A stretch of 58,665 nucleotides of DNA, counting the filler, from Dugesia japonica (Eukaryota), in assembly GCA_001938525.1 (NCBI GenBank). It is 5 parts of 5 records of this genome, joined end to end, with 100 filler letters (N's around TTAATTAATTAA, not from the genome) between each part and the next. Parts side by side here need not be neighbours in the genome. Positions count along the whole stretch, not along the records: positions 46,942 to 58,665 come from MQRL01586495.1; 4 more parts are not named here. One strand, written 5' to 3'. This document shows positions 5,401 through 58,573 of this stretch, piece by piece; the first letter of the stretch is position 1; every line of letters starts with the position of its first letter. The position numbers and the translations under genes were made by a program. Under the pieces are notes generated by a model. That model made no database searches. It was not told the DNA's origin and worked only from the letters and a program-made list of their open reading frames with translations.

Positions 5401-8400
5401 AGTTTGTTCCAAATTTTAGTTAATAATTTTATTAACATAATATATACACTGGATTGTTTTCTTCATTTAGAAGGCACATTTAAGTCATGCCTTAATAGCT
5501 TTTATCAGCTTTACATAACCTATATTATATATAAAAGTATCACATTTATTTGGAACAGGCTTGAAACAAGGAAGGTTCAACCAATGCCTCCGCACCAGTT
5601 TCAGAGCGCCAAAATAAACCATAGGGGCGAAAAAATGAGTTTTATAAATTTTTAAACTTTTTTTCTAAAACATTATTTTATGAATTCATTTTAAAGGCAC
5701 TTGCTGAAATGAAACGGCAGTCTTAAGGGGATGTTGCAAACATGCAGCCAGTTTTTATATCTAAAGCAATATACGACATTATAATATCGTGATAATTATT
5801 TTTTAAGTGTGACTGTCGACTGGTTTGCTCTTGCCTGTAGCGTAGTAGATATGGTACGATGTGGTGCTTAAATAACCCTAATAATTTCTAAATGTTAATA
5901 ATAACTTATTTCATAATTAATTTTGTAGTTCATGCCGCATGCAGTATGCTACAGTATACTATACAGAAAGAGCATACACTATACATACCTTACCTAGTGA
6001 ACTACGCAACAATGTTAAACTTTACTTGCTACATAAAATTTCTGGCTTCAACATGTCTTTGACTATAATTCTTTGCCCATAAATAAATTTTGCATCAATT
6101 CCAACTCAGAGTTATCAGATTTTTATTTTGTGTTACCATATTAATCAATATTTCCTGTTTAGTTATTTATTTATTATATATTCTTATTTTACATTTTTAT
6201 AAGTCAAATTATAATTATTAACCATGCCTCCGAAAAAGCAATCAGGATGTTATTTTAGATAAAAAAATCAAATTAAAAGAAAGAGAAAAAAGAATAATTA
6301 TAAGACGTGTCAAAGATTTCTTTGCAAAGGCGAAAAACTGAATCTACTAGTTCACGTTCTTTTTCTGGATAGAGCCAAAGCCTTGAACCTTGCATCAGTT
6401 TACCATATGAACCACATTCTGATTACAATGTTATATGTGAAACAATCAAAACAAAGGAACCAGAAAGGAAAGATGAAGTTGATGACATTGGCGGAATTGT
6501 ACTTGTCATGGAAAACAATGAAATAGGTCAGTCTGTAGGAGTAGTTGACTTGGATTTTATGGGAAACTGGAAAATATATCTGCAAGATGAGAACGGTGTG
6601 TATAACATGGTTTCTAACCATGAAGGAGAATTAATTACTATTGAAGATAGTAATAATATAGTAATAATATAAGATAGTAATAATATAGTAATAATATAAG
6701 ATAGTAATAATATAGTAATAATATAAGATAGTAATAATATAAGATAGTAATAATATAAGATAGTAATAATATAGTAATAATATAAGATAGTAATAATATA
6801 GTAATGATATAAGATAGTAATAAGATAAATAAAAGACAATTCACGTGTCAATATCAACAAAATAACGAAAATTTCATAAACTTTAAAAGATCGATGGTCG
6901 TTTTGGAGTCTTGAATAAGTTGTCAGAAGTATTTAATTTTTTTAAATGGAGCAGTGATATCTAAAACTCTGGCTTTAGAGTTACAAAAATGGCCAGTTGC
7001 CTAGCACTAAAATATGATCAAGATCTGGATGAAAATGAATTCTGTTCAGAAATAGAGACTTCGAAATTCCAGGCTAAGTCAACTTTTAAAGAACATGAAT
7101 TGTCAGATTTATTACTAATACAGCTTCTAAATTGGATTCATTCTATGTCTCTGCAAGAAACATATCCCAACGCAGATATAACTCTGCAAATATTTCTTAC
7201 GTTGCCTGTCACTTTAGCCAGTTGTGAACGAAGTTTTAGCAAATTGAAAATGATAAAAAANTATATGAGATCAACAATGAATCAAGAAAGACTTAGAGAT
7301 TTAGCGATACTCGCAATTGAAAAAGGTTTTGCGCGTGCTTTAGACTACTTTGGTTTGATCGATGAATTTGCTTCCAAGCAAGCGCGAAAAATTGATTTTT
7401 GAGAAGTAAAATTTAAATTTCTGCTTCTTATACTTCTAAATACTGCCATGTTATTCATATATCAAAAAAATTCTTTTAATTTCTTTTTTTTTTGATTTCT
7501 TTTGTCGCTTTTGATGTTTTAAGGGGCGCCAAAATTAGGCTTCGGACCGGATGCCATGAAGCATAGTTTCTGGCCTGATTTGGAATTTGGAGAATCTAGA
7601 CTACGTCATCTTTCGTTAGTTACTTGAGTCATGTTTCATTAAATATGATTTGTTAAGCATTGACGTTTAATTTAATAATTATTCGTTGAAAATGAAAATT
7701 ACTTGACAATGAAAAAGACTGATACCAAGAAAATAGTTATTTCTTTAGGTTATCAGAAGTTTGAACGTTTGTTTTAAATATATTTAAAGTGAACAGTTTT
7801 TTTAACTTTTGATAACTTTTAGGTTGATATAATTTAATTTATAAATGAAATCCAAATTGAAATAATCTTATTATATAAAAATAAAATTTCTCAACGAAAT
7901 ATTCTGCAAAATATTAATTAATACTTAATAATAGTTTGAGTTGTGTTTGTTAATAAAAGTTAATTTCTGTTTAGTTTACTTTTATTTTGATTTATATATC
8001 ATTAAATTATATTCAAAATAATCAAAGTATTATTATTCGAATTATAAATAATTATTTTAGGTCTTTTCATGAATAATTTATTGAATCTTGAGGAAATGAC
8101 AGTTTTTTTAATAATTGCTAATCATTATTTATTTATATTTTTTACTTTACTTTATATTCTACTTTGTTTTTCTTTAATTAACAGGAATTTCGGGGATAGT
8201 GTTTAAAAATGCATTTTAAGTGGTTCACTGTAAAAAATAAGAATTCAGGATCTTAATGAACATTAGTTATTTAAGCATAGTGGTAATGTTCTTTTGGTAT
8301 CATTAAATAAAATAAAGATGATGCCATATTATTTTTAAGAATTTGTATGATAAATCAAAACTAAGTAATTGATCTTACTGTAATGAACGTTACTTTGAAT

Positions 8401-15872: not shown

Positions 15873-16615
15873 TCAAGCTGGGCTTGGTGATTTTACTAAA
15901 CCAATATGTTTTCCTAATTTTAATGCTCGCTGTCGTAACATATCTTGAATCAATTGAAAACACATAGACAAAAGCACTAGTCCAAAGAACAAATATATTG
16001 CACAAATAATCGGCTTGCTCTCATTTTTCCATTGGGAATTCAATAAACCCGGGACTAAATCACCGAAACCAATTGTAGAGAATGTTATAAACACAAAATA
16101 ACAACTATTTAAGTACACCCAATTTTCCCAAAAACTGATTAACAAAGCGCCAACTAAAATATAAACAATAAATACACTCAATGGTAAAATTAATGGCAAT
16201 TCGCATTCGTCTTTACGATGAAGATTGTTCATAAAATCTCCAGTATCAATCGAAATAGTAAAATGAAGTTTTTTCTGCTTTTCTTCACTAGATTCCGTGA
16301 TTCGAGAGAGATTTGTTGAACCACTTGAAAGTAATAATAGATTTTTACCGATTAATTTATTATTCGGTACTGTAAATGATTTACTATCGTACTGGGATTG
16401 AGTTTCAGTTAATGATATTACCGATGCAGTTTTTGTCATCTGTCGTCTTCGACATTTCATCCGATTTCTTAAGCATTTATAAAATATTTTAAAGCCTTTT
16501 CCAAATAAAGAACCAAGATTAGTAAGACATAAAACCATCAGTGGTATTCCAAACATCGCATAAATAATTGTAGCTATTTTACCGTTATTAGTTTGCGGAA
16601 CAATATTCCCATATC
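15873..16615 (-). CDS. Terminal exon of a two-pore-domain (K2P/TWK-type) potassium channel
   Basis: Acceptor TTTCAG|GA splits the Gly codon that begins G-Y-G-N-I-V-P. M2 is IIYAMFGIPLMVL, the second pore is YFVFITFSTIGFGDLVPG, and M4 is IYLFFGLVLLSMCFQLIQ. Upstream exons were not found. Confidence 0.95.
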
Positions 16616-17444
16616 CTGAAATAAAAAGATCATGTAATTTACTTGTCGTTTTAAGCATGTTTCAATGATGACAACTAACAAAAAAATAATTAAAATTCGA
16701 TTATCTATTATCTATTATACAGAGTCTGTACGCTAATAATAACCTCACTTAATGAACCAAAATTTTTACTGGTTAGTCCAAATTGCCAAAAACATTGACT
16801 TAGCATTCATTCTCAATATAACAATAGAAATACTTCAACCATCCAGACACTGTTCATAAACTCAACTCTCTAGCTTATTTGCGAGATCTCCACACCTTCT
16901 TATCTATCCTCGAAATAAATTTTTGTTTCGTTTTATTAGCAATAAGAAATTTTTCTATTTCTTTCAAGTCTTCACAAAGGATTCACTTATTTTCTATTAA
17001 TCTATTTCCTTCTTTTTTTGCATAGCTTATAATTTAAATGCAGTGCTAAAGAATTTTATAGTATATTTGATTCAGAGGAAAAAGTATTAATGGTATAGTT
17101 AACTATTCTAAAATTCTTGAAATTATTAANGATTTATCATTGAAATTTCAATTTATTATAGTAAATATTTAAATTTATTTAAATATTATTAATATAATAA
17201 AATAATTACTACTTCCATTTCAAAATTTTAGTAGATATAATTAAGAAAACTAATATATTATTAATGAATATGATTCGCATAAATATTATTTTTGTAATTA
17301 TAAAATGAACAAGAGCCGCGGTTAATAGTCCAGAGAATACGGTAATTGAAGATTAATCAGAAACATTGAATTAAAACGTGTTTAAAACNNNNNNNNNNNN
17401 NNNNNNNNNNNNNNNNNNNNNNNNNNTTGTTAGTTAATTTTACA

Positions 17445-23225: not shown

Positions 23226-23717
23226 ATGATTTCTAATAGTAATTACAAAGAGAAAGTTTCCAAAGAGATTATAAGTAAAATGAAATTTTCAATTGGAAAA
23301 CCTTCACAATTTGTTGACAAAGGTGGTTAATATACAGTCATATTCTTTAAAACCGGAAATTGTCGAATAATGGGCTTGAAAAAACCTATAGAAATGGAAA
23401 ATTTACAGTATGATATTAAATATATTCAGTTGCAATCGTTAACAATCGTAATCAATTTGGGACTTTCGATTTATTTATATAAATTGGTAAAGATAACAAA
23501 ATGTTGGTTTGAACCAGAATTGTTTCCAGTATTGTGTCTTACAAAATATGATCCTATATGTGTTAATGTATTTTCATCAGGAAAAGGCGTCATACTTGGT
23601 TTCAAGAATTTACATTATCATGGATATGTTGACAACATAAATACATATTTATATAATTTAATAGATAAAATGCAATACGAATGCAATCCTGTTTCAACAA
23701 CCAATTTAAATAGTTGA
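23226..23717 (+). pseudogene. Compact, intronless, divergent TATA-binding-protein-like gene with one in-frame stop
   Basis: ATG 23226 is in frame with ORF 23370, with TAA at 23328. Repeat 1 is TVIFFKTGNCRIMGLK (cf. TBP TALIFSSGKMVCTGAK). Repeat 2 is WFEPELFPVL...CVNVFSSGKGVILG (cf. YEPELFPGL...LLIFVSGKVVLTG). Confidence 0.8.
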
Positions 23718-31800: not shown

Positions 31801-31813
31801 TATACTATAAAAA

Positions 31814-32479
31814 ATGAGTGAAGAGAAAAAAGTTGAAGTTAAAAAGGTTCTTTATCAAGCTAATTCAGCAGATTTATCTTTAGCATGTGTAACAAATATA
31901 ATGAATAATTTTAGTAGTTTTAAAAATTTAGATATAAATGAATTAATAGATTTATCAAAATGTGAAGGAACAAAAGAAATAGCAATACCAAAATTAGAGG
32001 CACTTAAACAATCTTATGAATTAATAGAAAAATTAGATGTTAATCAAAAAACTAAAAATTTCATTAAAGCAATTTCATCTCATTATATGGTTAAAGTTAC
32101 AAAAGATGAATGTAAAAGTTTATCGTTAGATCTTCTTGAAAAGAATTTTAACGAAGCTCTTGAACTTGCTGAATTTTATGAAAAAAAATTTACTGAAGCG
32201 CAAGAAGCTCATAACATAACTTTAAAGAAATATAATGAAACTCGAGTAAAAGTAAAACAACCAAGAATGGTTGAGTTTGACAATTATCTAATGAAATATA
32301 ATCCTGCAGAAAGAGAAGGAAAAAGAAATTATGTAAAGAATGAAGATATTACTAAATTACAACAAAAAATAATTAATGATAAAGAAGGAATTTTAAAACT
32401 TTATAAAAATAGATATAGTAAAGTACCCACAAAGGGAAGTGATTCTATTGCCAATGCTCATGTTAAATTAAAACAATAA
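31814..32479 (+). CDS. Hypothetical helical/coiled-coil protein of the Polinton-like element
   Basis: Intact 221-aa ORF in very AT-rich DNA. AAAATG start context, and the next ORF starts 2 nt after the stop. No family recognised. Confidence 0.7.
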   Translation: MSEEKKVEVKKVLYQANSADLSLACVTNIMNNFSSFKNLDINELIDLSKCEGTKEIAIPKLEALKQSYELIEKLDVNQKTKNFIKAISSHYMVKVTKDECKSLSLDLLEKNFNEALELAEFYEKKFTEAQEAHNITLKKYNETRVKVKQPRMVEFDNYLMKYNPAEREGKRNYVKNEDITKLQQKIINDKEGILKLYKNRYSKVPTKGSDSIANAHVKLKQ

Positions 32480-32481
32480 AA

Positions 32482-32748
32482 ATGGATACAGTTTTATATA
32501 AAATGTTAAGTGAATATAATTTTAAAGAAAACTCTATACAAAACTTTTGTAAAGTTAATAATGTTAATGAGAAAACTATTAAAAAATATTTAAAGAAATG
32601 GAACATTGAATATAACACTAGATCATGGGATCCATCTAGAAATTTACAAAGAAATTCACATGGAAGTTTTATTTCTTTAATTGATAGATTTGAAAAACAA
32701 CACCCAATTAAAAAATCAAATAATGGTAAAATTAATTATGAACAATAA
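32482..32748 (+). CDS. Small putative helix-turn-helix protein
   Basis: SIQNFCKVNNVNEKTIKKYLKKW fits an HTH pattern; identified by eye only. Confidence 0.5.
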   Translation: MDTVLYKMLSEYNFKENSIQNFCKVNNVNEKTIKKYLKKWNIEYNTRSWDPSRNLQRNSHGSFISLIDRFEKQHPIKKSNNGKINYEQ

Positions 32749-32954
32749 AATAAAGAGATTAAAAATATTAATGTAAAAAATAGTGGTGATAATAATTATG
32801 ATGATTTATTTTTAGAGTTGAAAAAAATATGTATGCAGTAACGTATTGTTTTATAGTACTGTTTATAGTTGTGATTTAGTACTGTTTATAGTTGTGATTT
32901 AGTAATACAACCTACAATAAAATATAACACTCTATTAAATTTTACATCTAATAA

Positions 32955-34254
32955 ATGATTACAATGTTAGATTTAGACAATAATATTGAATTTTCACATA
33001 CAGCGGTTAAAAATGATACATTAGTAATATCACCATCAGCAGGAACATTAAGTAAATTAAATTCAAGTGGAGACATAGTATTTCAATCTCTCCAATCTAC
33101 AAATCCACTTGATATCTGTAATTCATTATTATACTTTNNNNNNNNNNNNNNNNNNNNNNNNNNNNNNNNNNNNNNNNNNNNNNNNNNTTAGAAAATAACT
33201 TCTTTCCAAGTTTATTTAATTCATTAAGATTATTTTTAGGTTCATCTGAAATTGAATCAATTAATGATCCAGGTGTAATAAGTACAATGTTAAATTTTAT
33301 ATTTTCAACTGAAACAATAAAAAGGAATATGGACAATTATCAGGTTTGATGCCAGATATAAATAATGGAGATACAGATGTAAAAAATAATGGATATCAAA
33401 TTAGAATGAAACTTTATAACTCAGGTAAATTTGAAGGTTACTTTCCATTAAAAAACTTATTTGGATTCATGCAAAATTATAACAGACTTTTATATAATAC
33501 AGCAATAGAACTTAGATGTAATAGACAAATTGAAAATAATTTATTATGTTATGGTGATAAAGATGCAAAAGCTACTTTAGAATTAGATGCACTAGAATTT
33601 CACATACCAGAAGTAAGATTATTACCTAAAACAGAATTAATAATGTTAGAAAGAATATCAACAGAGAAATCAATTAAAGTTTCATATTTAAACAGAATAT
33701 GTGGTAAAACTAATTTAGAAGTCGGTCCTTTTTATTCAATTAAAATTGGTAGTTTAGCATATCAACCTAGATATATTTTAATTTGTTTTAAATCACCAAA
33801 TTCTTCATTAGAAACTAATGATAATCTATTTATACAGAAAGTTACAATAACTACAAAAGTCGAAGCAAAAGATGTACCAAAATCTAATTATCTTAAAGGT
33901 TTACAATTACAATTAAATAATACTAACTATCCAGCTAATGAATTAAAATTTGATATGTCTAAAAATGAAATGGCTCATCCTTATTTAAATTATATAAATT
34001 GTTGTCATGACTTTTTCATTGAACCACAATTATCATTATTAGATTTTGGTAATTTATATCCACTATTTTGTTTTGATACAANNNNNNNNNNNNNNNNNNN
34101 NNNNNNNNNNNNNNNNNNNNNNNNNNNNNNNNNNNNNNNNNNNNNNNNNNNNNNNNNNNNNNNNNNNNNNNNNNNNGAAGAAAAACATGTAGAGATGAAA
34201 CTTGCTAATAGTAAAGTTGTTATGATAGAAAATGTTAAAGGTCAAGATATTTAA
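32955..34254 (+). pseudogene. Double-jelly-roll major capsid protein (Polinton-type), with a frameshift near 33330 and N gaps
   Basis: LNSSGDIVF, NNFFPSLFNSLRLFLGSSEIESINDPG, FPLKNLFGFMQNYNRLL, PRYILICF, LNNTNYP and YPLFCFD are motifs typical of Polinton capsids. Confidence 0.8.
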
Positions 34255-34272
34255 TTATTTCCTCTTAAATAA

Positions 34273-35560
34273 ATGTCCTCTAAAAATAATTTTATATGTG
34301 ACAATTGTGGTAAAATTATTTTAAAAAAGAATAAATCCAGACATTTAGATTTATGTATAAATAGTGTAAAGCAAACTAAATCAAGTTTTATTAGAAAAGG
34401 TTTTAAAACCAATTACAACAGAAAAATATCCAGGTGAAAGACATTTATTTAAATATAATTACACTGGTCCTGGAACTAGATTAGATATTAGACTTGATGA
34501 AAATAATAATCCTAAATCTGGTGAAGAACCAATTAATAAAGTTGATGAATCTGCATTAAAACATGATATTGCTTATAATTCAGAAGATCTTAGAGATAGA
34601 CATATTGCTGATGTTAATTTAATACATGATCTAAATAATATCCCAAACCCAACATTAACAGAAAAGTTTCAAAGAGCTCTTGTAAAATTAGCTATGAAAG
34701 GTAAAATAATGATTGGTAAAGGTGGAACTAAAAAAGATCCATTTAAGAAAAGTACAATTATAAAAGATGAATCTGAAGATGAAACTAATGATAAAGAAAT
34801 ATTAAGTAAAGAACTACATAAAGAATATAGAAAACCTAAACATTTTAGAAAAGTAATTGTTTATGAAAAAGATGATATTTGGTCTGCTGATTTAATATTT
34901 CAAGGTATTGAATGTAAAGGTAAAAATGTAATACTAACATTTATAGATCTTTACACTAGATATGCATTTGTTGAACTTTAAAAAAGTAAGACTGGACAAG
35001 AAACAACAAAATCATTTGAAAGAATTTTAACTAAAAGTTTTAGAACTCCAAATAAATTATGGACTGATGAAGGATTAGAATTTTATAATTCATCATTTAA
35101 ATCTTTCTGTAAAAAAATGACATTCTTTTATATTCAACATTAAATCAAGGTAAAGCAGTTGTTATTGAAAGATTTAATCGCACATTTAAAAATAATCTCT
35201 TTCAACATTTTACTGCCGTTGGAAATCAAGATATCAATATTAAGTTATTAGAACAAATTGTTGATGATTACAATAACACAATACATTCATCAATTAATGT
35301 TACACCTCAACAAGCAACAAATAATCCAGAAAGTATTGAAATTGAAATACCAAAAGATTACAATCAAAATCTAAAATTTAAAATTGGTGATAGAGTTAGA
35401 ACTACTAAAATTGGAAAAACATTTCCTAAAGGTTATACATTTAAATGGACAAAAAGAATTTATGTTATTACTAAAATTTATCATGAACAACCTATAACAT
35501 TTCAAATCTCAAATCTTAACGGCAACAAAATATTGGGAAGATTATATAGTAATTACAAAA
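34273..35560 (+). pseudogene. Zinc finger / parvovirus-type phospholipase A2 / DDE integrase gene
   Basis: 34273: CDNC-x11-H-x3-C finger. The frame open from 34370 reads YNYTGPGT...PINKVDESALKHDIAY...RHIAD (PLA2) and runs without a stop into WSADL, TFIDLYTRYAF. After a stop at 34979 and a frameshift near 35115 it continues LWTDEGLEF, VIERFNRTFK, YNNTIHSSI and KFKIGDRVR (Maverick-type integrase). Confidence 0.9.
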
Positions 35561-35611
35561 AACTTCTTTATAAATTGTTAAATGTAAGATGTAAAATTTT
35601 ACATATAGAAA

Positions 35612-35830
35612 ATGGAAGATTTTAATAATTATTATCTTAATATTAATGATGATATTCAAGTAAAAGAATTAGAAGAAAAAATAGAAAATAAGAAAATAGA
35701 AATCTATAATTACAATTGTGAAATAAAAAAACAACATGCTATGAATGAATTAGAAGGATTATATGTAGATATGGAACAATTGATACATAATTTAACTTAC
35801 ACCCAATATTTATTAGATAAATATAAATGA
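35612..35830 (+). CDS. Small hypothetical coiled-coil ORF
   Basis: 72-aa ORF preceded by the shared upstream motif. Confidence 0.5.
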   Translation: MEDFNNYYLNINDDIQVKELEEKIENKKIEIYNYNCEIKKQHAMNELEGLYVDMEQLIHNLTYTQYLLDKYK

Positions 35831-41730: not shown

Positions 41731-42184
41731 CGTTAATCAGTCTAACGATTCTCCATAGTAAGAAGATTACCATCACAGAAATCTGATCTGAGTTCAACTG
41801 GACAAAAATTATATCAGCCATAAATGAAGTGACAATGATGGTTCCATCAAAAATCTTTAAATAAAAAAAATTAATAATTAATTTTTTTATTATCATGAAC
41901 AATTATTTTCACTTCTACTTTCTTTTTGAAAAACCTTTCACCAATAGACACAACTCTCATTATCAGTTCTATCATAAAAACCACCAATATTGCAATACTG
42001 ATGTAATGTAGATACAATCCAATATTGTGAAGAACAGTGGACCTATGTAAACTGTATTCTGAATTTGTTTTATGATCGGATGAATACGAATCTTTATGGT
42101 TATCATCAAGCTTGTCAGAATCTTGATGTGACCATTTCTTTGTAGTATGGAATGAAGTATTACACAACTGTAAAAGGATACTTT
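41731..42184 (-). CDS. HVCN1: Two exons (42184-41913, 41854-41731) of a voltage-gated proton channel (Hv/HVCN1 family), S1-S2 loop to S4
   Basis: LHYISIAILVVFMIELIMRV...FFKKKVE|IFDGTIIVTSFMADI...LLWRIVRLING matches Hv1 FHYMSITILVFFMMEIIFK...[22 protein letters not shown]...RLWRVARIING. The 58-nt GT-AG intron keeps the frame. The S1 and C-terminal exons were not located. Confidence 0.88.
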
Positions 42185-42299
42185 CTACAAATAATTTGTA
42201 TATTAATGTTGATTTACAATTTTTAAAATTATTAAAAGACAAATAAAATGAGAAATAAATGTATAATTATTAAATATTAAAAATTGAATTATTGATCAA

Positions 42300-46941: not shown

Positions 46942-48429
46942 TTCTAGTTGTAAGATTTTAATATGTTTTACAACACTTGAAACTAAATATCTTTTATAAA
47001 TCGATTTGGGTTTTAATTAATTTAGATTTTGTAACAATATCCTACTAACAATCATTGAAATTAATAAAAAGATTTGATATTCTTCATTTTAAAACTACAC
47101 CTGTGAATACTTATATTTTATTTTCAAAAACTTTTGATTTTATAAATGTGTAATTTACTGTTGACAAAATAAAGTTCTCATTTGTTGTAAATATGAAAAG
47201 GAGTATATTATTTGCTTTATTATTAATTAGCTTTATCTTTATTTATATTTATTTAATCTTAAAACTTGGTAACGTCAAAGATTTATAAATTACGAAATTA
47301 TTTATGAAAATAGTAGGTGGTAAGCTAGGAAATCAACGGATGATATGAAAATAAGACTATTATAAGAAATTAGTAAATTGAAAGTAATATGAAAACCGGG
47401 TAAAATCAGGAAGTAAAATCGATAAAATTTATTATTTTATATTTTCAGAGATCATGTCGAGATATCCACGAAAATCATCACAGAGCTTACAACCAGGAAG
47501 ATAAACTACAGGAAGATACTATAAAGGAATATAAATTAAAGGAAGATAATCAGGAAGAAAATTAAGGAAGCTAATCAGGAAGAAAATTTCAGGAAGATAT
47601 TAGGAAGAATATTCAGTCATACTTATTACGGATGCAGTTATGGGAAATAGGGATCCCCAACTGGTAAGCTACAATCAGAAGATTGATCACCTTTGTAGAA
47701 AGTAACCGCAGCAGTTGTCTAATGACTATAACTGAAGAAGTAATTGGGTATTATTGGATTTGTGATATAATTTAGAAAGCCTGCGTATGGGAGGGAAAAC
47801 CTCGGAAGATATTAACGGAAGCCTGCACAAGGAAGGAAGATACGTGAAGTCCTAAGCACATTAACCAGTATGTTAAAGGAAGGCCACGTAATTAAGCACA
47901 CTAAAAGAAGCCTGATTAGAGGAAGAATTAAAGGAAGCCGGAAGCGTTTGCCTGCACGAAAAGAGTATTCCAAACGGGGCCGCCGATCCCTCAGAAAGCT
48001 CTCGGTACTCCCCCAGGAAGAATTATTAAAAGTGTGCATTGTNNNNNNNNNNNNNNNNNNNNNNNNNNNNNNNNNNNNNNNNNNNNNNNNNNAAACGGGG
48101 CCGCCGATCCCTCAGAAAGCTCTCGGTACTCCCCCAGGAAGAATTATTAAAAGTGTGCATTGTTACACCGGCATATCAAAAGGAAGAAAAGGAAGAAAGC
48201 CAGAAGAGTTCGCCTATACTACAGAAAAATGGGTACTCCTACATTTAGGAAGAGATAACCTGGCGTTAATTAGAAAAAAAGGAAGTATTACAGGAAGATT
48301 AAAGGAAAGCTTAATTAAGGAAAACGGAAAAAGAGAAAATTTAAGGAAGATGGTTGTGGGGCTATGATGACAAGTATAGAGCAGCATGGTATTAAAGTAA
48401 GTTTAAAAAAACAGGAAGAGGAGTAATTG

Positions 48430-48923
48430 TCTCCTAAATAAAGACAATTAGAAGTAAATTTTACTAATTTTACTAATCGGAAACAGCAAATGGGAGAAAC
48501 CCCACAAGCATATATGAAGGAACTTAAGAGGCGTGGTAAATTGGCCTTAAGAGACAAGCTGGCAGATAGTCAAGTACTCGCTATCTTTTTAAACGGAATA
48601 CGAGACGAGAATGCCAAACTAATGGTAACACTGAGTAAGCCCGTGACACTACAGGATGCTCTGTCCACGTTGTGAATTGTAGTCGATAGACCGTCGGAAC
48701 GAATATTTAAAGTAGAGGGACAAACAGAAGAAACTACACCACGAATATCAGATTTCATACCTAATACACAATCAATGAGGAAAACCCTGACCCCAGGGCA
48801 AGAACGGAACAACCTAAATGATAGATCTAATTATCCCAGAGGGAATGGTGGAGGATTCAATGCACTTGGAATAATTGGCAAAATAATCGAGATATACAAT
48901 GCAATACCTGTGGAAGAAGGGGA
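48430..48923 (+). pseudogene. gag: gag (capsid C-terminal region and start of the zinc knuckle)
   Basis: RKQQMGETPQAYMKELKR...AIFLNGIRD...KPVTLQDAL, then IQCNTCGRRG at 48894-48923 running into an N gap. Confidence 0.85.
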
Positions 48924-49139
48924 NNNNNNNNNNNNNNNNNNNNNNNNNNNNNNNNNNNNNNNNNNNNNNNNNNNNNNNNNNNNNNNNNNNNNNNNNNNNN
49001 NNNNNNNNNNNNNNNNNNNNNNNNNNNNNNNNNNNNNNNNNNNNNNNNNNNNNNNNNNNNNNNNNNNNNNNCAAAAGAATGTCAAAACGGGAATCAAACA
49101 AATTATAATCGGAATCCGAATACAAATCTGGATAATCTA

Positions 49140-52100
49140 ATGCAAGAAAATGAAAGATTAAGACAACGAGTAAATCAAAACAAGGGACAAGTCAATTTAG
49201 TACATCAAAATACTTTCGACAATGTGTATCACAAGGTGCAACAGGAAAACGATTGGCTCAAGTGGCAAAACCAAGACTTGCAGGTACAGCAGGAGAGACT
49301 GGCCAAAAGGAACTTGTTAAACGAACCACATAAGAATCAGTGTAATATGGTTAGGACACACAGGCAGATTTATAATCAACATGACGAAACAATAGAAGTC
49401 ACCAAAACGGAAGATACGCGAAAACGAATATTTATCACGTCACCGGAATTCGAGTGGACCGAAGAGATCATCTATAAAACAATAAAAACGTCAGTAACAA
49501 CCACCGGTAGAAGAAGAGTGATGAACCAGTTACTTCAATTATATCAGCACCCACAAGTACACGCAAAGGTAAAAGCTAACTGGCAAAAAACAATATCGGA
49601 TTATATCGCCGAGCTGTATAAAGAAACCCAGTTAGACGATTATGAGTTTGAAATTCAATATGTATGGCATAACAACCCGGAAGTCATTTTAAAACGGCTA
49701 AAATTACACCTAAAAAGTACGACACTTGAAAGGAGCACTTAGCGAAATAAAATGGGATAAAGTAAACCCGTCCCTCGAATCACCACCATTTAACGAGCAG
49801 CAGCAATGGAATGGGAAGTGGATTAAGCACCGATTGCAACTAGGGAATATAGGAATCAATATTCTTCCCGATGACAAGAACCTAATTTATTACGGGGCAC
49901 GACCTCATGAAACTACAGTAATCAAATTGATAAATTGGGATTTGGTATCCCGAGCATAAATGGTAATCCAAGAAATAGAAACAGACGAGTTATATCATAA
50001 TCTCGAAGAAACATTCCTAAAGAAAATAGTTCCCCTCCAGGCTCAAAACTACATGCGTAAAAGATTGGGAAAAATAAGGCTAATAGACTATCCAGAATTG
50101 GAACAAGCCGAAGCGTCACGGTTATCCTTAGCCCGAATTGATGAGATACAGGTAGCAGCTCAGAAACTCCATGATACGATAAAGAAAGAAGTATACCTAA
50201 AGTTGACAAATCAATTGGTTGAATTATTGGAAGTTATACAACTGATCACCGAGTGCGAAAGCGATTGGACAGAATGGTTACCAGTGCATTATGAGTGGGT
50301 AATATCCAACATGGGATTATCAGATTACCAAGTATGGCTATATAACCCGGAAGGAAATATGAAACTGACGCTCACAAGATTAATGGTAGAGGATCTAGAA
50401 GCGGCGTTTAATCAAGCCGGTTATCCATGCATAACCGATAAATATGTATGCACTCCAAGTGCTATCGTAGATTTTAATGCCGGAAAGAAACATCTATATG
50501 ATTTTGGAGTAAAACCAGGAGAGGACATTGAAATCGTAGTATTGGACAAACACCATGGTATCAACTACGACATCTGGATAACAAAATCCGGACGATCAGC
50601 TTTAGAAATCATGGGAGAAATGGAGTATCTATATAAACAAGGGGTAGAGCCGATTAAAATCAAAATAATTTCCACTGTACTCGGGAAGAAGGATAAACTG
50701 ACAAAGGAGGAGAGGAAGCAGTTATTAATGACGCATAATGATTTTCTCAAACAACGATTAGAGAGAAGAGAAGGCAATTGCAACATGATAAGAATGTGGC
50801 AAATGCCATCAAGAGAAGTGGTAGCAATGCGAAAAGTGGAAGAAATGGTTCACCGAGTACAGATAGAGAGGGAGAAGTTCCCTCAAGAGACCTATTGGAT
50901 GATAATGAATAGAATCTACGACATATATGACGGACTAGAAATACCGGAGGAAATCGAGAACCAGTCGCTCATGATTAAACAAAAGTATGCCGAAGAAATA
51001 TTGGCGACTACAAAAATTCAAGATTATAAATTATATTTAAATATCGGGGAAAATGAACAGGAAGTGACTAAATATAGTCGATTTAAACCACAAGGAATAA
51101 CCATGATGGATTTAANNNNNNNNNNNNNNNNNNNNNNNNNNNNNNNNNNNNNNNNNNNNNNNNNNNNNNNNNNNNNNNNNNNNNNNGTTGAGACCGACGA
51201 CGAGGACAAACACATATTTCAATGCCACGCAAAGCCCGGAGAAATATGTGAGTTAGATATAGACGAGGAGCCGCGGACGGATCAATCACCGGATCTCAAG
51301 GAGCAAATGGAAGAGATAACAGAACTATACGTATCCGAAGTATTGTCCGGCATAAAGGAACACGTAAAAGAAAGTCAGAAAATACAGAATATTGATAACT
51401 TGCCAATAACCACCACCAAATCAGTTGTATTTCCGGAAGGGACGCCAACAATACGCGATATTGGGGTGAACTACACAAAACCGATAACCGAGGAATCCGC
51501 TACGTTTCACGCTATCAACAACCTATTAAGAGTAACACGAGAAACTCGACCAGTCGTGAATATCAAAGTATATTGGAAGATGACGAATAACTTACGGAAT
51601 TTGGCAATCTATGGACAACTCAGCTTGTGGGCTCAAGCACAATGGTGGAAAGAGATAACCTTATACGAAGATGAAGTACAAAATACATCCACCATATCCG
51701 ACTATTCTATTAGAGTCAGCCTCCTTAATAAAAAGGGAAGCATAAAAAAGGTAGATATGATAACGCTGGAAGGATTAACGGTCAACCATATCATAAAACC
51801 AATCAAGAAATGGCTATGGCCAAAATCGCTCAAGTCTTATAAAATGGAGGCAGGAGCAACAATGATCATATTAGCAGAGAAGGAGGATCACATCTTCTTA
51901 CATGATATCAAACCAGGAGAGATCACAGAAATAAAATTAACACCACGTAAAATGACCATCGACATCCCGATACCAAAAACACCGGATACCGACCAACTCA
52001 TATTCAATATGATGAGCCTATATCTACAAGAAATACTACCAGTAGAGAATGAACGACTTATAAACACTTATGGAGAAAACAAAGTCCAGGTAAACATGGT

Positions 52101-54650
52101 TCGGGATAATGACCATGACACCACAGATCTAACATCAGATGAAGAGGAGCTGGAGGAAGAAATCTCGGAGGATATTGGCCAACCCCGGTTGTTACCATTT
52201 AAACATAAATTCGCTGGTCCTTTCAGCTCCCATCAGGCAGAGCAGATATCGAAGATAATATCTGATTTCTGTAATTTCCAGGAAAGTATACCTAGGGCAG
52301 CATTTTGGAAAGCATTAAATTTACTAATGGATCTGGCAAAATATACTGAAATAGCAAAGGAAGAATGTGCCAAATAGGAGTCAGTAATCAAGTTGTATGT
52401 TGGTGCAGTGAAAACAAGTGCCAGAGGAGAAGACTTTCAAGTCACGATATCTGAGGAAAGAACCAGAATTGGCTGTCATTCACATACCACATTGAGATTT
52501 ACTATAAAGTTTGAAGGAAAACAACATTTAATGGACGCAGGATTGAGACTCGGAGAAAATACATTTCTTCAAATACAGAAACCAGAGGATTGCATCCCAG
52601 GACCATTAAAATCTATGAAGGAAGTAATACAGCAACTAGAGGAGTTGTACGAACAAGAAATCAACAATGATAAGTTATTTGAAGAAGTCAACAATAGAAC
52701 AATGGAGATAAATATTGAGTTATGGGAAGACAGTAAAACATGAGGAAGTCTGGCGCGAGTAATAATGAAAATACTCTTAACCTTGGAAGAAAACTTGGAA
52801 CTATTAAGACATGACAAAGTCATTCAATTAGTTCTAAAGCTAAATCAATTACGAGCTATAAGTCAAATGCCTGAAGACATAATGGATGCAATATTAAATA
52901 AAGCAGTTCGAATGATAACCAATGAAGCCGTCACGGTAACAATCAGATTTCCCGACGAAAGTGAAATTCGTTGGCAGGTCCAAATGAACGAACCATGGGC
53001 TAAGTTGCAGAAGAAGATTGTAAAATTTATGAATCAACAACGTAGCCTTAACGAGGAGAAAACTAGAGTGCAAACATCAGTTCAGGAAGACGACATAGTA
53101 CTCTATTACAACCACGTAATAGAATCAGACCAAATGAGATTGCCAGTAAAATATATGGGGGTTTGACCAGGTACTAAATTAAAATTTTATGTAACATCAA
53201 GGGAGGAGAAGAGACGACGCCTACGGGTCTCGGAGGAAAAATGAAAGCAGGAAGCTAGGGAATTAGTGGAATATTACATAGAAGAAATAAATCCATTAAT
53301 ATTCACTAGAGCCAAGCTCCCTAAACAAGAGCAAAATAAACAACGAGTAGAGATGGTAGCAGCTCCGACTAACACCCCGGTCAAAGACGAGAAACCGGAA
53401 GACAATATACCGAAATTGTTTGAATTACTGGTAGGCGATAAGTTAATAAAACCGGAAATCATACGACGATGCAATATAGCCTTACAACAAGATCTAGCCG
53501 TAGAAGATCTTAGAAAATTGCGACGAGTAATACTAGCCATCAAAGTAGCACATGTATGAGATCCAGTTCAGTTCAGTAAGATTCCGGTTAAATGGCGGAA
53601 AGCAGAGATGGGCCAGACCACGCCATTAGAAGTCAAATTCAGAATAATCGATCCAGAGGGGGATAAAGTCACAATTAGGATACCAGTATATAATACAATC
53701 AAGCACCTACGGGATAAGCTACCATTTAAGCCACCATACAAACTCTTGGGTGAAGATGGAATAGTGGAAGATACCACTCCGATTGAACTGATGAAAATAG
53801 ATTTAGTTAAACCTAATACGTTGTGGATTTTTCCCGAATTGGGAGGTACTCTCACTCGTAAAGACGCAGATCCTTTTGAAGCAGTAGATAAAACCAGACC
53901 AATAATGGGAGAGGCCTCAGGTATGTTAAAAGCATATAAACACCGCACATAACTAGCGGCTAGTCAAATATTAAGACCTACAACCGATCAATCAGGAAGT
54001 GCAGAAGCATCCCGAGAAACTAAAGAAACTCCTAAAACAAGCCAAGATTGGGATCATTGAAACAAAAACGATTAACGACATCCATAAATCATCAAACTAA
54101 GCGATTAGCAACGGTATCACAAGAGAGATACCACGAAAAATCGACAGATGATGACATACCAACCGAATTAGTAATACGGCAGTTACTGCTAATGTTGTAT
54201 CCGGAATTAAAAATATGGATTGGGAAATTTCAACTATCAGATAATCTCAGACCACTGGCAAAGAAATAGAAGCAGCCATTAAGAAATTCCCTGCCATTAA
54301 AGGTACTAGTCTTTGTACCAGAGATAATTTTGAAGGAGTCATGGACGAATTATTACAAGATCAGCCAGCCAAGGATAGTAGTATCCATAACACATCTGAT
54401 TAATCAAACACATCTATCAATCGCAAGAAGCAAGCCGTCAAAAAATTTCATTCTAGGTAAACTACCAATAGTGGATCTAATGCAGAACAAGATAGTGCCG
54501 TTAATAAAACAGCATGGGGGATGGAAAAAGTTCATTGAGGCTATATGCCCTAAACCTCAGCCATCTCATGAAAATGCAACTAGAGTAATCAGGATTGTCC
54601 GGGATCAGTTAAATGAGATCGAGAATGGATGGACACGCGGGCCCCGCCAA
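49140..54650 (+). pseudogene. Accessory polyprotein region: ubiquitin/SUMO-like repeats, possible CARD-like domains, Bcl-2-like domain
   Basis: ORFs from 49726 to 53952 share one reading frame and are separated only by stop codons. Repeated DY...KPGE units, a UBL ending LWIFPELGG, and IKQHGGWKKF. Confidence 0.65.
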
Positions 54651-54656
54651 AATTCA

Positions 54657-55100
54657 TGGCAAGCGTTAACCACTACAATACTCTTGTTATTCTTAATGAT
54701 GGGCAGAGGTGAAGCCATACTAGCATACGATTGCGATGGAATGCAAGTTGGGAAAGAGGTATTCTCATTAGTGGATACAGAGGAATGTCCAGATGCAAAC
54801 CCGGAAAATATCTCACTCCGTAACAATTCCATTTATCATCTATATCAGGAGTCAGATTATTATAAGGCCCAAATACGCGAATGTACGGTAACGGTAAAAA
54901 CGTTCATATTTCATTGCGGATAACATAGTTATACATCAATAATCGACCCAAAAACGGTGAGACATCCGGTACATTAGCAATGGCGGTTACAAACCCCGAT
55001 AGTGTCACTTCACTACTCCCGTTGGAAAAAGGACAATTCGGTCGAGTGGTCGGAGAAGTAATGTACCTATACAAATGCAAAGCCATAGATGCTGAGTTCT
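54657..55100 (+). pseudogene. env: Internally deleted chuvirus-type envelope glycoprotein
   Basis: Signal peptide TTTILLLFLMMGRGEA, then ILAYDC...FSLVDTEEC...HLYQ...ECTVTVKTFIFHCG*HS. In another frame: LAMAVTNPD...GQFGRVVGEVMYLYKCKAID. Confidence 0.75.
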
Positions 55101-55379
55101 CGTCTAAAAGGAGAAAGCACACCAGCACCAGTACAAATGTATTATAACGCCTATCCGCAGCATGGTTGGCCACCCATGAACCAACAACCCTAACAAGTAT
55201 GGGCACCAGGTCCCATGTACAACAATCCGTATATAAGCCCGCCACAAGCCCCGAATATGGCGCTATTAACAGGAAGCAATATATCAATTATGGACCGAAG
55301 AGTAATCGAGCAAAACTTGCGCGCTCCAAATAACCCAATTACTGAGTATGATAAGTTAGAAACACAGACTGTATGTATG

Positions 55380-55730
55380 ATGATTTCCCAGAAAGCAAAA
55401 TTATTACAGAAAAGGATAAAGATCGACGGAAGATGGGTAATAGCTATTATCGATACAGGAGCAAGTACAACGCTAGTCCAAAAAAGAAAATTAGAAGATT
55501 ATCGACTACTTAGAATAACAATAACTAAAGGAGTTATCATCACTGCCTCCGGAGAAAAAATCTCACCCTAGGGAGAAGCAATATGCGCAATAGAAAGCAA
55601 CGGAACCCGGCTCTGGCATAAACTGCAAATAATGAACGAATTAACATTCGACTGTCTATTGGGGTTGGACCTCTTGTCACGCCTTTGTCCGGAGGGAATA
55701 TTGGATTTGAGAGAACTAACGATACGGGAA
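55380..55730 (+). pseudogene. First retropepsin-like aspartic protease
   Basis: IKIDGRWVIAIIDTGASTTLV...ITASGEKI and FDCLLGLDLL, with one in-frame stop at 55569. Confidence 0.88.
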
Positions 55731-56027
55731 AATTACGATCAGGAGTATGCCCCGGTAGGGTATCAGAGAACTCGAATAATAACCAAACAGAAACGACCAC
55801 AACACTGGAATCAGCCAACACCCAACCGGCTGCAGCAACGCTCAACGGGCCGAAACGAACAAAATAACTCGAATCAAGATTGTCGGAAAATCACTCATAC
55901 AGCCACCATGATAAGGGACGATTGGATAAGGTTTCAAGAACGAGAACCAAGATGAAAAAACCAATCAAAATCAAACCCCAGTCATAACCCTTCAGATGTA
56001 GTATGCACAAGCCTCAACGGCGGACCA

Positions 56028-58573
56028 ATGCTAACCATTATGGTTAAAATAAACGGCCGACACATAACAGCCCTATTGGACACAGGAGCAACCAAATCGT
56101 TGCTGCCAATAGATGAAATTGCGATAACCGATTACAAAAACATATTACCTACGAACACTATAGTGGATGTGGCAAATGGTAGTAGCCTCAAGATTTTTGG
56201 AGAATTAGCCTGTGAAGTCGAATATCAGGATAACAAAATTAAACACAATATGATCATAGTAAAAATGATGGAACAGTGTATACTAGGAACAGACATTCTT
56301 CCCGTCCTGATGAAAAACGTTATATTAAACTTCTCAACATTACGGTTACAATCATTGGAGGGGTATGCCCATGTGAAAGATCAGGAAGTATTCACCACAG
56401 AAAAAATCTTGGTGCCTAGTAGATGTCAAGTATATTGTGTAGTCAGTACCAAAAGTGCATATAAAGGAGATTGTTATTTCGAACCGTATGACGGATTTGC
56501 ACACCAGTACGAGCTACCCACAGCAGGAGGAATAACCACGGTCAACAAAAGTGGGGAAGTACCAGTTAGTTTGATCAACTTCACGGAAAAAGATATCAAA
56601 ATCAAACCTAACTCTAGGATGGGTACACTAACCCCCATCGAACCAGAGCCCGACGGGATAGAAGAAGTAGTCGCTGAACCGGAAATCGACAGAACGTTTA
56701 AAGTAGAGACGGAAACTTTGTCGGAGGGTCAGAAACAAGCAATACTGCAACTGCTGGAGGAATTTAGAGACATTTTTGCATGGACTGATGAAAATTTGGG
56801 TATGTGCACAGCGACAAGGCACACAATTCCACTAACAGACGAAACGCCATGCAAACAGAAGCCATATGCCATGACGGTAGAGAAAAAAGAGTTTGCAAAT
56901 AAGGAAACGGCCAAATTAGTAAAAATTGGGGAAATAGAACCTAGCTGCTCACCGTGGCAGTCACCAGTGGTAATGGTCGATAAAAAAGATGGGACACAGC
57001 GATTCTGTATCAATTACAGAAGACTGAATGCCCAGACTAAGAAAGACACTTATCAATTGCCAGATATCAATGAACTATTGCAACTGTTGTGTAACGCTAA
57101 AATATTTATCACGCTGGATTTGCGAAGCGGTTACTGGCAAATAGAAATCAAACCAGAAGATAGAAAGAAAACCGCCTTTTCTACAGGCAAAATTTGTATC
57201 AGTTCATCCGTATGCCATTCGGACTTACTAATGCACCAGCCTCATTCCAACGAATGATGAATTACGTAACTCACGGCATATCTCAATGTATAGCCTATAT
57301 CGATGATATACTAATCTTTTTGCCAACCTTTGAAGGGCACCTAAATGACTTGCGTAGTGTGTTTGTACGATTACGTAAAAGGAATCTAAAAGTGAAACCC
57401 ACCAAATGCGAATGGGCCAAGAATAAAGTAACATATTTAGGTCATTTAATATCGGATAAAGGAAAAGAGCCCGATCCACGAAATACCGAGAAGATACGAA
57501 ATCTAGCACCGCCAAATTGCGTGCTCAAAATACAAGAATTTCTCGGTCTCGCGAACTATTATCGATAATTCATTAAGGATTTCACTAAAATTGCGAAGCC
57601 GATGCAGGAACTGGTCAAACAAGATACTGCCTTTATATGGGGGCTGGAACAACAACAGTCATTTGAAACATTACGAGACAAATTATTAACTGCACCAATT
57701 CTGGTACACCCAGATTTCAAGAAGCCATTTATATTAGCCACTGACGCTAGTGGATACGCGATGGGTGCAGTTTTGAGCCAACTAGATGAACAAGGAAGAG
57801 AACGAGTAATTGCATATTTTAGCAAGAAATTTTAAGGAGCAGATTTAAATTACAGCACAACAGAACGAGAGATAATGGCTATTGTGAAAGCCACTAAACA
57901 TTTTCGATCACTTATACATGGTCACGAGGTGGTAATCTATACGGACCACTTACCAATTACGTTCATGGCGCAGAAACCATTACGATGGAATAGAATGGCC
58001 AAGTGGTAACTGGCAATGCAGGATTATTGTCCTCTGTTAAAGTTTAAAACGGGTAAAGCAAACTCAAATGCTGACTGCCTGTCCAGAATCGGTGGACCGG
58101 AAACTACGGAGAATGCACCAGAAAGTACAGAAACGTTCATATTGCTAGAATTATAGGAGAAAAAAGTAGGAATGGTATATTTCATACTAGCGGAAGATAG
58201 AAATTTTGATGGACTAAAGCAAGCACAGGCTGATGATGATGAGATAAAGATCATTATGAAATACATGGAAAATTACAATTTAGAAAAGTTAGAATGTGAA
58301 CTTAAGATGAAGGAACACCTAAAGAAAAATGGTGGTTGGTATGCACTTACCAAAGGATGGTTGACAGTGTTAGCTATCACTAAAGCAAGGCGGGATAAAA
58401 TACTTGAACAATATAACAATGGAGTACTCGTTGGACACATGTCTCACAAGAAAACCGAATTCAAGTTAAGACAGAAATATTACTGGCCACATATGACGGA
58501 ATCTGTGAAGGAATGGATTGATAAATGCCAAATATGTGCTGCCAGGAGAGAAACGGGCTTTCCTCTTGATTGA
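56028..58573 (+). pseudogene. pol: pol: second protease, RT, RNase H and integrase zinc finger (disrupted, truncated)
   Basis: ALLDTGATKS...CILGTDIL; SPWQSPVVMVDKKDG, LDLRSGYWQI, RMPFGLTNAPASFQR, YIDDILI; ATDASGYAMGAVLSQ; GHMSHKKT...YYWPHM...CQIC. Several frameshifts and stops; the integrase core is absent. Confidence 0.97.

Follow-up and report, generated by a model that had tools for sequence, protein, structure and literature searches.

Why would the polyprotein of a retroelement carry a series of ubiquitin-like (Ubl) domains, and what might they do there? The question arises from a 58,665-nucleotide stretch of Dugesia japonica DNA (assembly GCA_001938525.1; five parts joined by filler), which we call the window. 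From about 47 kb on, within the part taken from MQRL01586495.1 (46,942–58,665), its plus strand holds a broken Ty3/gypsy element in the order gag-like region, repeat array, env fragment and pol. Judged by sequence, the array stretch is likely the gag-env cargo region of a decayed Burro-type GAG-ENV-POL retroelement. A reading made from the sequence alone had described an array of five or six ubiquitin- or SUMO-like units of 75–80 residues, one of them ending in di-glycine. The array is real, and the peptides quoted in that reading lie where it placed them, in one plus-strand frame; there are, however, up to seven units, which we number U0 to U6. All element coordinates below refer to the plus strand.

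The repeated module and its fold

Successive units start 227, 232, 226, 246, 164 and 233 residues apart, and similarity extends about 60 residues upstream and about 45 residues downstream of each core. The repeated unit is thus not the 75–80-residue domain but a module of about 230 residues, consisting of a helical segment, a Ubl core and a helix; the sequence-only reading had not recognised the Ubl as the centre of a larger tandem unit. Profiles were built from two to four modules at a time and scored on the modules held out, against 1398 background tiles; the unit boundaries had been set by inspection beforehand, which makes these tests somewhat lenient. Judged in this way, R0 to R4 are five homologous copies of the module. 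R1 (50125–50688; core U1 at 50323–50544) was recovered with E 2.3e-14 and is also the subject of the fold prediction described below. R2 (50821–51402; U2 at 51019–51260, which contains a 71-N gap) gave E 1.5e-6. R3 (51499–52086; U3 at 51697–51942) was placed by the R1-R3 alignment, which spans about 190 residues with a z score of 12.1 (0 of 500 shuffles). R4 (52237–52728; one stop) gave E 1.8e-10 and has a shortened core of 48 residues, U4, at about 52432–52575; this core lacks about 24 alignment columns, and its start had earlier been put at 52393.

R0 (49440–50082; U0 at about 49638–49932) was missed by the sequence-only reading and contains a frameshift near 49714–49740. Its N-terminal half was recovered with E 1e-6 to 1.5e-5, beyond the 1398 background tiles, and its C-terminal half, in the other frame, with E 0.03–0.11, beating every tile in six runs trained on R0–R4 members. 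R0 also retains a DNA-level echo of the start of U1. R5 (52744–53337; U5 at 52930–53193; two stops) is a probable, weak sixth copy by sequence: the whole module scored poorly (profile E 6.6–40) and the repeat profiles did not find its N-terminal half, but the C-terminal half scored E 0.57–6.3, above all 1398 tiles in two of three runs, and matched in register by hhalign (E 0.029, probability 1.7%). U6 (53623–53847), which no R0–R5 profile matched, is a separate domain. The frame of the array is interrupted by six in-frame stops within 49960–53982, in addition to the gap inside U2.

Among the cores, U1-U2, U1-U3, U2-U3 and U1-U4 resemble each other (z 6.4–9.4, with 6.8 for U1-U4; 0 of 1000 shuffles), which bears out the claimed likeness of the first three units described earlier, and a profile of U1 and U3 recovers held-out U2 with E 0.0011 among 1950 six-frame tiles. 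The remaining 11 of 15 unit pairs have z below 3, and the likeness does not carry over to the whole array: with U0–U4, U5 shows a weak relationship and U6 none that can be detected. The repeats are 16–23% identical to R1. R1 and R3 form the closest pair, and the best match of R0 is R1, leaving a strict two-module super-repeat, which we had considered, without support beyond the motif spacing discussed below. At the nucleotide level the array shows almost no repeat, and a BLAST self-comparison returned the diagonal only. Given the low identity, the preserved register and hydrophobic pattern, and the lack of a DNA repeat, the duplications appear to be old and to have been kept at the protein level. 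MAFFT alignments containing U6 were dropped because U6 was misaligned with the other units; in alignment A2, U5 is partly misaligned.

The beta-grasp fold proposed for the units fared well in U1. Its AlphaFold2 (AF2) model has the topology beta-beta-alpha-beta-beta-alpha-beta and a predicted local distance difference test score (pLDDT) of 67; as the folding alignment held only four units from the window, ubiquitin was not fed into the model. A Foldseek search of the PDB ranked ubiquitin and Ubl structures first (best E 3.5e-3, TM scores of 0.6–0.68, identity to solved Ubls at most 21%), and 42 of the 45 matches listed name ubiquitin, Ubl, UBX, ISG15, NEDD8 or SUMO. In VIA, the Ubl domains of OASL and FAT10 headed the list with Z 8.2 (root-mean-square deviation 2.3–2.4, 72 residues aligned), tied with TBCE and UBX; PB1, DIX, CIDE-N, FERM F0 and TBCE are among the structures that score no more than about 1 Z lower. 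Matches in a viral structure library were CIDE-N, giant-virus Ubls and the inserts of bovine viral diarrhoea virus (BVDV). U1 is therefore likely to be a beta-grasp, on the strength of its predicted structure.

U6 is predicted from language-model features to be a ubiquitin/SUMO-like beta-grasp: the ESM Atlas places it with Rad60-SLD/ubiquitin clusters (0.92, recognition 2949), and its ten best family-bearing matches all belong to one clan, with 159 shared features, a number in keeping with distant relatives. The fold would extend to U0, U2, U3 and, in part, U4 by their homology to U1; for U5 it is suggested by eye and by the weak in-register match to the repeats. That at least four units are beta-grasps we consider highly probable. 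PDB sequence searches with U5, U6, alignment A2 and repeat profile A4 gave no relevant match, and none of the 17 matches of U6 in phmmer against the PDB at E up to 10 is a Ubl. A single-sequence AF2 model of the whole region (pLDDT 30.8) was not used. The flanks were also considered as a three-helix BAG domain, an idea dropped because Pfam gave no match.

The di-glycine of U6 and the fate of the reading frame

The unit said to end in di-glycine does so, at 53842–53847. This is the sole Gly-Gly in 1341 residues (1.6 expected), and U6 is the only unit with one after the last strand, the other six of the seven tails having none. With positions numbered from the threonine at the start of the last strand, the di-glycine of U6 stands at +8/+9 and that of ubiquitin at +9/+10; it therefore lies one residue nearer the strand than the canonical register of type I modifiers. 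With seven units, the probability that one of them has a Gly-Gly no more than one residue away from the tail slot is about 0.025. Across four contig runs, the six bases of the di-glycine are all absent from the best 40 of 158 differences, whereas the base just before them is among these. Most simply, the di-glycine may be the remnant of a captured modifier.

The element family is old and present in many copies: 7083 contigs from a single DNA run map to 3.8 kb of the element, and 5331 of them are less than 95% alike. Around U6, 26 of the best 40 of 158 differences fall at third codon positions; inside U6 the figure is 21 of 29 (p 2e-5), and in run X1 it is 25 of the 33 listed differences with a share below 0.95 (p 7.5e-7). 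Near-fixed differences indicate changes that occurred in the window copy alone; they come from another list of 40 rows, of which nine outside the array frame were dropped, and only seven of the remaining 31 are at third positions. Of the six stops, three fall where nearly all other contigs differ from the window copy, so that these breaks look private to this copy. The third-position enrichment suggests that active lineages have kept the frame intact, at U6 at any rate. The window copy itself is dead and decayed after insertion.

Possible roles of the units

We consider it about an even call that the units are integral, non-conjugated Ubl domains that target the host ubiquitin system, whether as decoys or as adaptors. 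An ancestral element would have captured a Ubl, amplified it together with its helical flanks, and encoded the whole in one polyprotein. The element's own aspartic protease might then cut after every second module, yielding three pieces of about 420–480 residues with two Ubl domains each, and a further, last piece that would join U6 to a possible Bcl-2-like domain. Such two-Ubl pieces could compete for, or recruit, proteasome receptors, p97 cofactors or SUMO enzymes, and as a result the element's proteins would be shielded from turnover, or cell death would be damped.

The putative cuts would fall at words of the type [VC]N[ML][VI]; hydrophobic stretches of this sort between domains are reminiscent of retropepsin sites. 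The candidates are VNLV after gag (49191–49202), CNMV before R0 (49341–49352), CNMI between R1 and R2 (50779–50790) and VNMV between R3 and R4 (52090–52101); a looser pattern adds VEMV between R5 and U6 (53347–53358) as a weaker candidate. The strict word occurs four times in 3213 residues against 0.19 expected (0 of 5000 shuffles), a p-value inflated by the word having been defined after looking at the sequence.

That post hoc definition is one of several points that weigh against domains acting on the ubiquitin system. The Pfam models for ubiquitin and Rad60-SLD, the families with which the sequence-only reading would have the units compared, match none of them; searching the PDB with profiles of the units found nothing, and U1 has no usable match in the ESM Atlas. 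The U1 model reaches a pLDDT of just 67, its Foldseek search gave no match at E 0.001, and Z 8.2 is a level that VIA itself calls common. Ubl, UBX, PB1, CIDE-N and FERM-type beta-grasps all match U1, and the structure matches thus fail to separate these subtypes. Selection was measured around U6 alone, on the best 40 of 158 differences, and the Bcl-2-like call at 54245–54570 was made by eye alone. There is also no sign of present-day expression in the three RNA runs sampled (13.6, 11.6 and 10.5 million records, with about 25, 25 and 6% of the runs read; species label as for the best-matching DNA run): they yielded 4, 1 and 1 reads, all less than 90% alike. A run search gave no RNA run among the matches listed.

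The closeness of PB1, DIX, CIDE-N, FERM F0 and TBCE to the best match (about 1 Z or less apart), together with an identity to real Ubls of at most 21% in U1 and constant helical flanks that suggest one folded module, would also fit cores with no relation to the ubiquitin system, acting as structural or self-association modules of the PB1/DIX/CIDE type or as solubility or folding spacers for a giant polyprotein. We think this rather unlikely, given that Foldseek puts ubiquitin and Ubl structures first in the PDB, that U6 groups with ubiquitin/Rad60-SLD, and that the MATH, BIR/RING and BCL2 cargo of related elements is tied to ubiquitination and apoptosis (PMC6431247). The incomplete core of U4, the weakness of U5, the frameshift in R0 and the restriction of the selection evidence to U6 would be expected if one or two units were true Ubls and the others neutral tandem duplications decaying without function. 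However, repeats that are 16–23% identical to R1 have kept their register and hydrophobic pattern with almost no DNA repeat remaining, and three of the six stops look private to the window copy; a neutral origin of most units is accordingly very improbable in our view.

A further question is whether U6 stands apart as a working processing signal, with a host deubiquitinase or SUMO protease cutting after its di-glycine to free the downstream Bcl-2-like/env part independently of virion maturation, U0–U5 being separate integral domains. The di-glycine does lie within one residue of the tail slot in the most canonical unit (chance about 0.025), the U6 frame appears to be under purifying selection, and none of the six di-glycine bases, as opposed to the preceding base, is among the best 40 of 158 differences. 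On the other hand, the di-glycine stands closer to the last strand, by one residue, when compared with ubiquitin, there is a proline in the tail, the evidence for its conservation covers those best 40 differences, and the element encodes protease domains of its own. Modifiers end in tail motifs such as LRGG or QTGG, and ELGG resembles neither. We regard cleavage at U6 as unlikely. The most elaborate proposal, a poly-Ubl counter-defence cassette in which the module was amplified sixfold, the element's own protease freed two-Ubl decoys and a host isopeptidase cut at the U6 di-glycine to release an anti-apoptotic Bcl-2-like protein, we judge distinctly improbable. Integral, non-conjugated Ubl domains thus remain our preferred reading of the array.

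The surrounding element and its relation to known systems

The GC content of the AT-rich window is about 18–30% and climbs to 33–42% from about 47 kb on, where the element lies. A leader at 47490–48400 contains many AGGAAG words; within it, at 47972–48163, an exact 71-nt duplication on either side of a 50-N gap is probably an assembly artefact. The broken gag-like region (48460–49340) was recognised by eye from its translation, as was a probable zinc knuckle split by a 148-N gap at 48924–49071; a Pfam scan of the region gave no significant match. Downstream of the array, a possible Bcl-2-like domain at 54245–54570 is split over two frames; the call is based on words that we take to be BH1/BH2-like, and Pfam and PDB sequence searches gave no match for its pieces. 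The env fragment (54666–55000) corresponds to the N-terminal part of a class III, gB-type fusion protein by Pfam (Monjiviricetes_fusion at 54666–54920, E 1.2e-11) and by-eye comparison, and lies upstream of the protease, reverse transcriptase (RT), RNase H and integrase. Within 54666–55250, env ends some 110 residues in and gives way to a short stretch rich in Pro and Gln; most of the fusion protein appears to be deleted in this copy.

Pol (55410–58552; Pfam) is also broken and runs off near the end of the window, within the integrase; it comprises two retropepsin domains, a dUTPase-like linker, RT, RNase H and an integrase zinc finger. The retropepsins form a tandem pair at 55410–56300, each with a DTG (E 3.8e-5 and 7.6e-8) and the first with a stop. 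The dUTPase-like domain between protease and RT matches PF00692 with E 0.0016 and 18.7 bits, under the curated cut-off of 22. No Pfam match to MATH, BIR, RING or ankyrin was obtained in the pieces scanned of this decayed copy, for which the window ends in the integrase.

The rest of the window contains unrelated features, identified by Pfam unless noted. A Polinton/adintovirus-like cluster at 31811–35625 (+) encodes a double-jelly-roll capsid protein (E 1.6e-15), a parvovirus-type PLA2 (E 8e-10) and integrase-like pieces. A lone 128-residue frame at 23331–23717 (+) with a TBP-like domain (E 1.3e-8) may be part of a mobile element. There are also a two-pore potassium channel exon at 15873–16661 (-; Ion_trans_2, E 2e-25), a C-terminal fragment of a hAT transposase at 6965–7402 (+; E 4.6e-13), and a stretch at 41871–42266 (-) that by eye resembles part of an Hv1-type voltage sensor, for which Pfam gave no such match.

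Protein searches returned no relatives of the array. Repeat profile A4 had no matches among 1.84 billion representatives at E 0.001, no array homologue was found in the protein libraries searched (proteins shorter than 737 or longer than 2347 residues), and the env piece had none among the longer proteins searched. Proteins of animal transposons may be sparsely represented in these libraries, and the blanks are therefore no proof of uniqueness. A metagenome locus, L001, was rejected, its match being a 28-residue chance hit in a cadherin-like protein; by eye, L001 (1–2538, +) encodes in one frame cadherin repeats, EGF, a membrane helix and an SH2-like tail.

Pestiviruses such as BVDV carry near-intact host ubiquitin or Ubl inserts that end in Gly-Gly and are cut by host proteases to free NS3. 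The window element shares with them a ubiquitin fold within a viral-type polyprotein, and the sequence-only reading had suggested host-protease cleavage of this kind. The window units differ in being highly diverged, as seen in the identity of U1 to solved Ubls and in the lack of a Ubl among the 17 phmmer matches of U6, and the absence of a tail di-glycine means that pestivirus-style cleavage cannot explain six of the seven; the suggestion could at most be retained for U6. Another parallel is with integral (type II) Ubls, exemplified by USP7 with its five Ubl domains and by Ubl1/Ubl2 of coronavirus nsp3. Those, too, are non-conjugated beta-grasps without di-glycine, several per chain, and are used for binding; unlike them, the window Ubls are separated by largely helical flanks of 130–160 residues as part of a tandem module.

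Among retroelements, the platyhelminth GAG-ENV-POL errantiviruses with gB-type env, Smed_errantivirus_1 and Smed_errantivirus_2 (PMC13524379), share the gene order, and by eye 16 of 29 residues at the env N-terminus are identical to the Smed_errantivirus_2 env row. The main text of that source contains no mention of ubiquitin, SUMO or Bcl, and leaves the gag-env cargo undescribed. PMC11410931 and PMC8532177 provide context only.

The closest known system is Burro/GYPSM1, the giant gypsy-like LTR retroelements of planarians, for which PMC6431247 gives the order gag, Ubi2/SUMO-like (PF11976), BCL2-like, env, protease, dUTPase-like, RT, RNase H and integrase. The window element shows the same polyprotein layout, with a possible BCL2-like part by eye only; the Ubi/SUMO-like motif upstream of BCL2-like and env is represented by the Atlas match of U6 and the fold of U1, Pfam being blank. 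The same paper reports MATH, BIR, RING and ankyrin cargo and an internal region of up to 25 kb in Burro1/GYPSM1 proper, and a Burro1 RING-BIR cargo domain is reported, second-hand, to block apoptosis in planarian stem cells (PMC13465017). The best example of transposon cargo acting on host cell death and ubiquitination is that of Burro-type elements. The window element differs from Burro in having two protease domains and a mostly deleted env; a tandem retropepsin is not mentioned for Burro in section 7 of PMC6431247, the portion to which this comparison applies. A single Ubl motif in Burro is already in print there, and the long array with its 230-residue module is apparently unreported: literature searches for such an array led to that paper alone and turned up neither several Ubls in a row nor the module, although other papers may say more. 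Where PMC6431247 names one Ubi2/SUMO-like motif, the window contains up to seven units, with five or six copies of the module. In a cargo region that is otherwise largely unannotated, the window thus resolves a module of helical parts plus a Ubl, repeated in tandem and accompanied by candidate processing sites, and U1, U3 and U6 offer small, stop-free domains that are directly testable for host partners. The array also shows that a Ubl was amplified repeatedly, apparently under selection.

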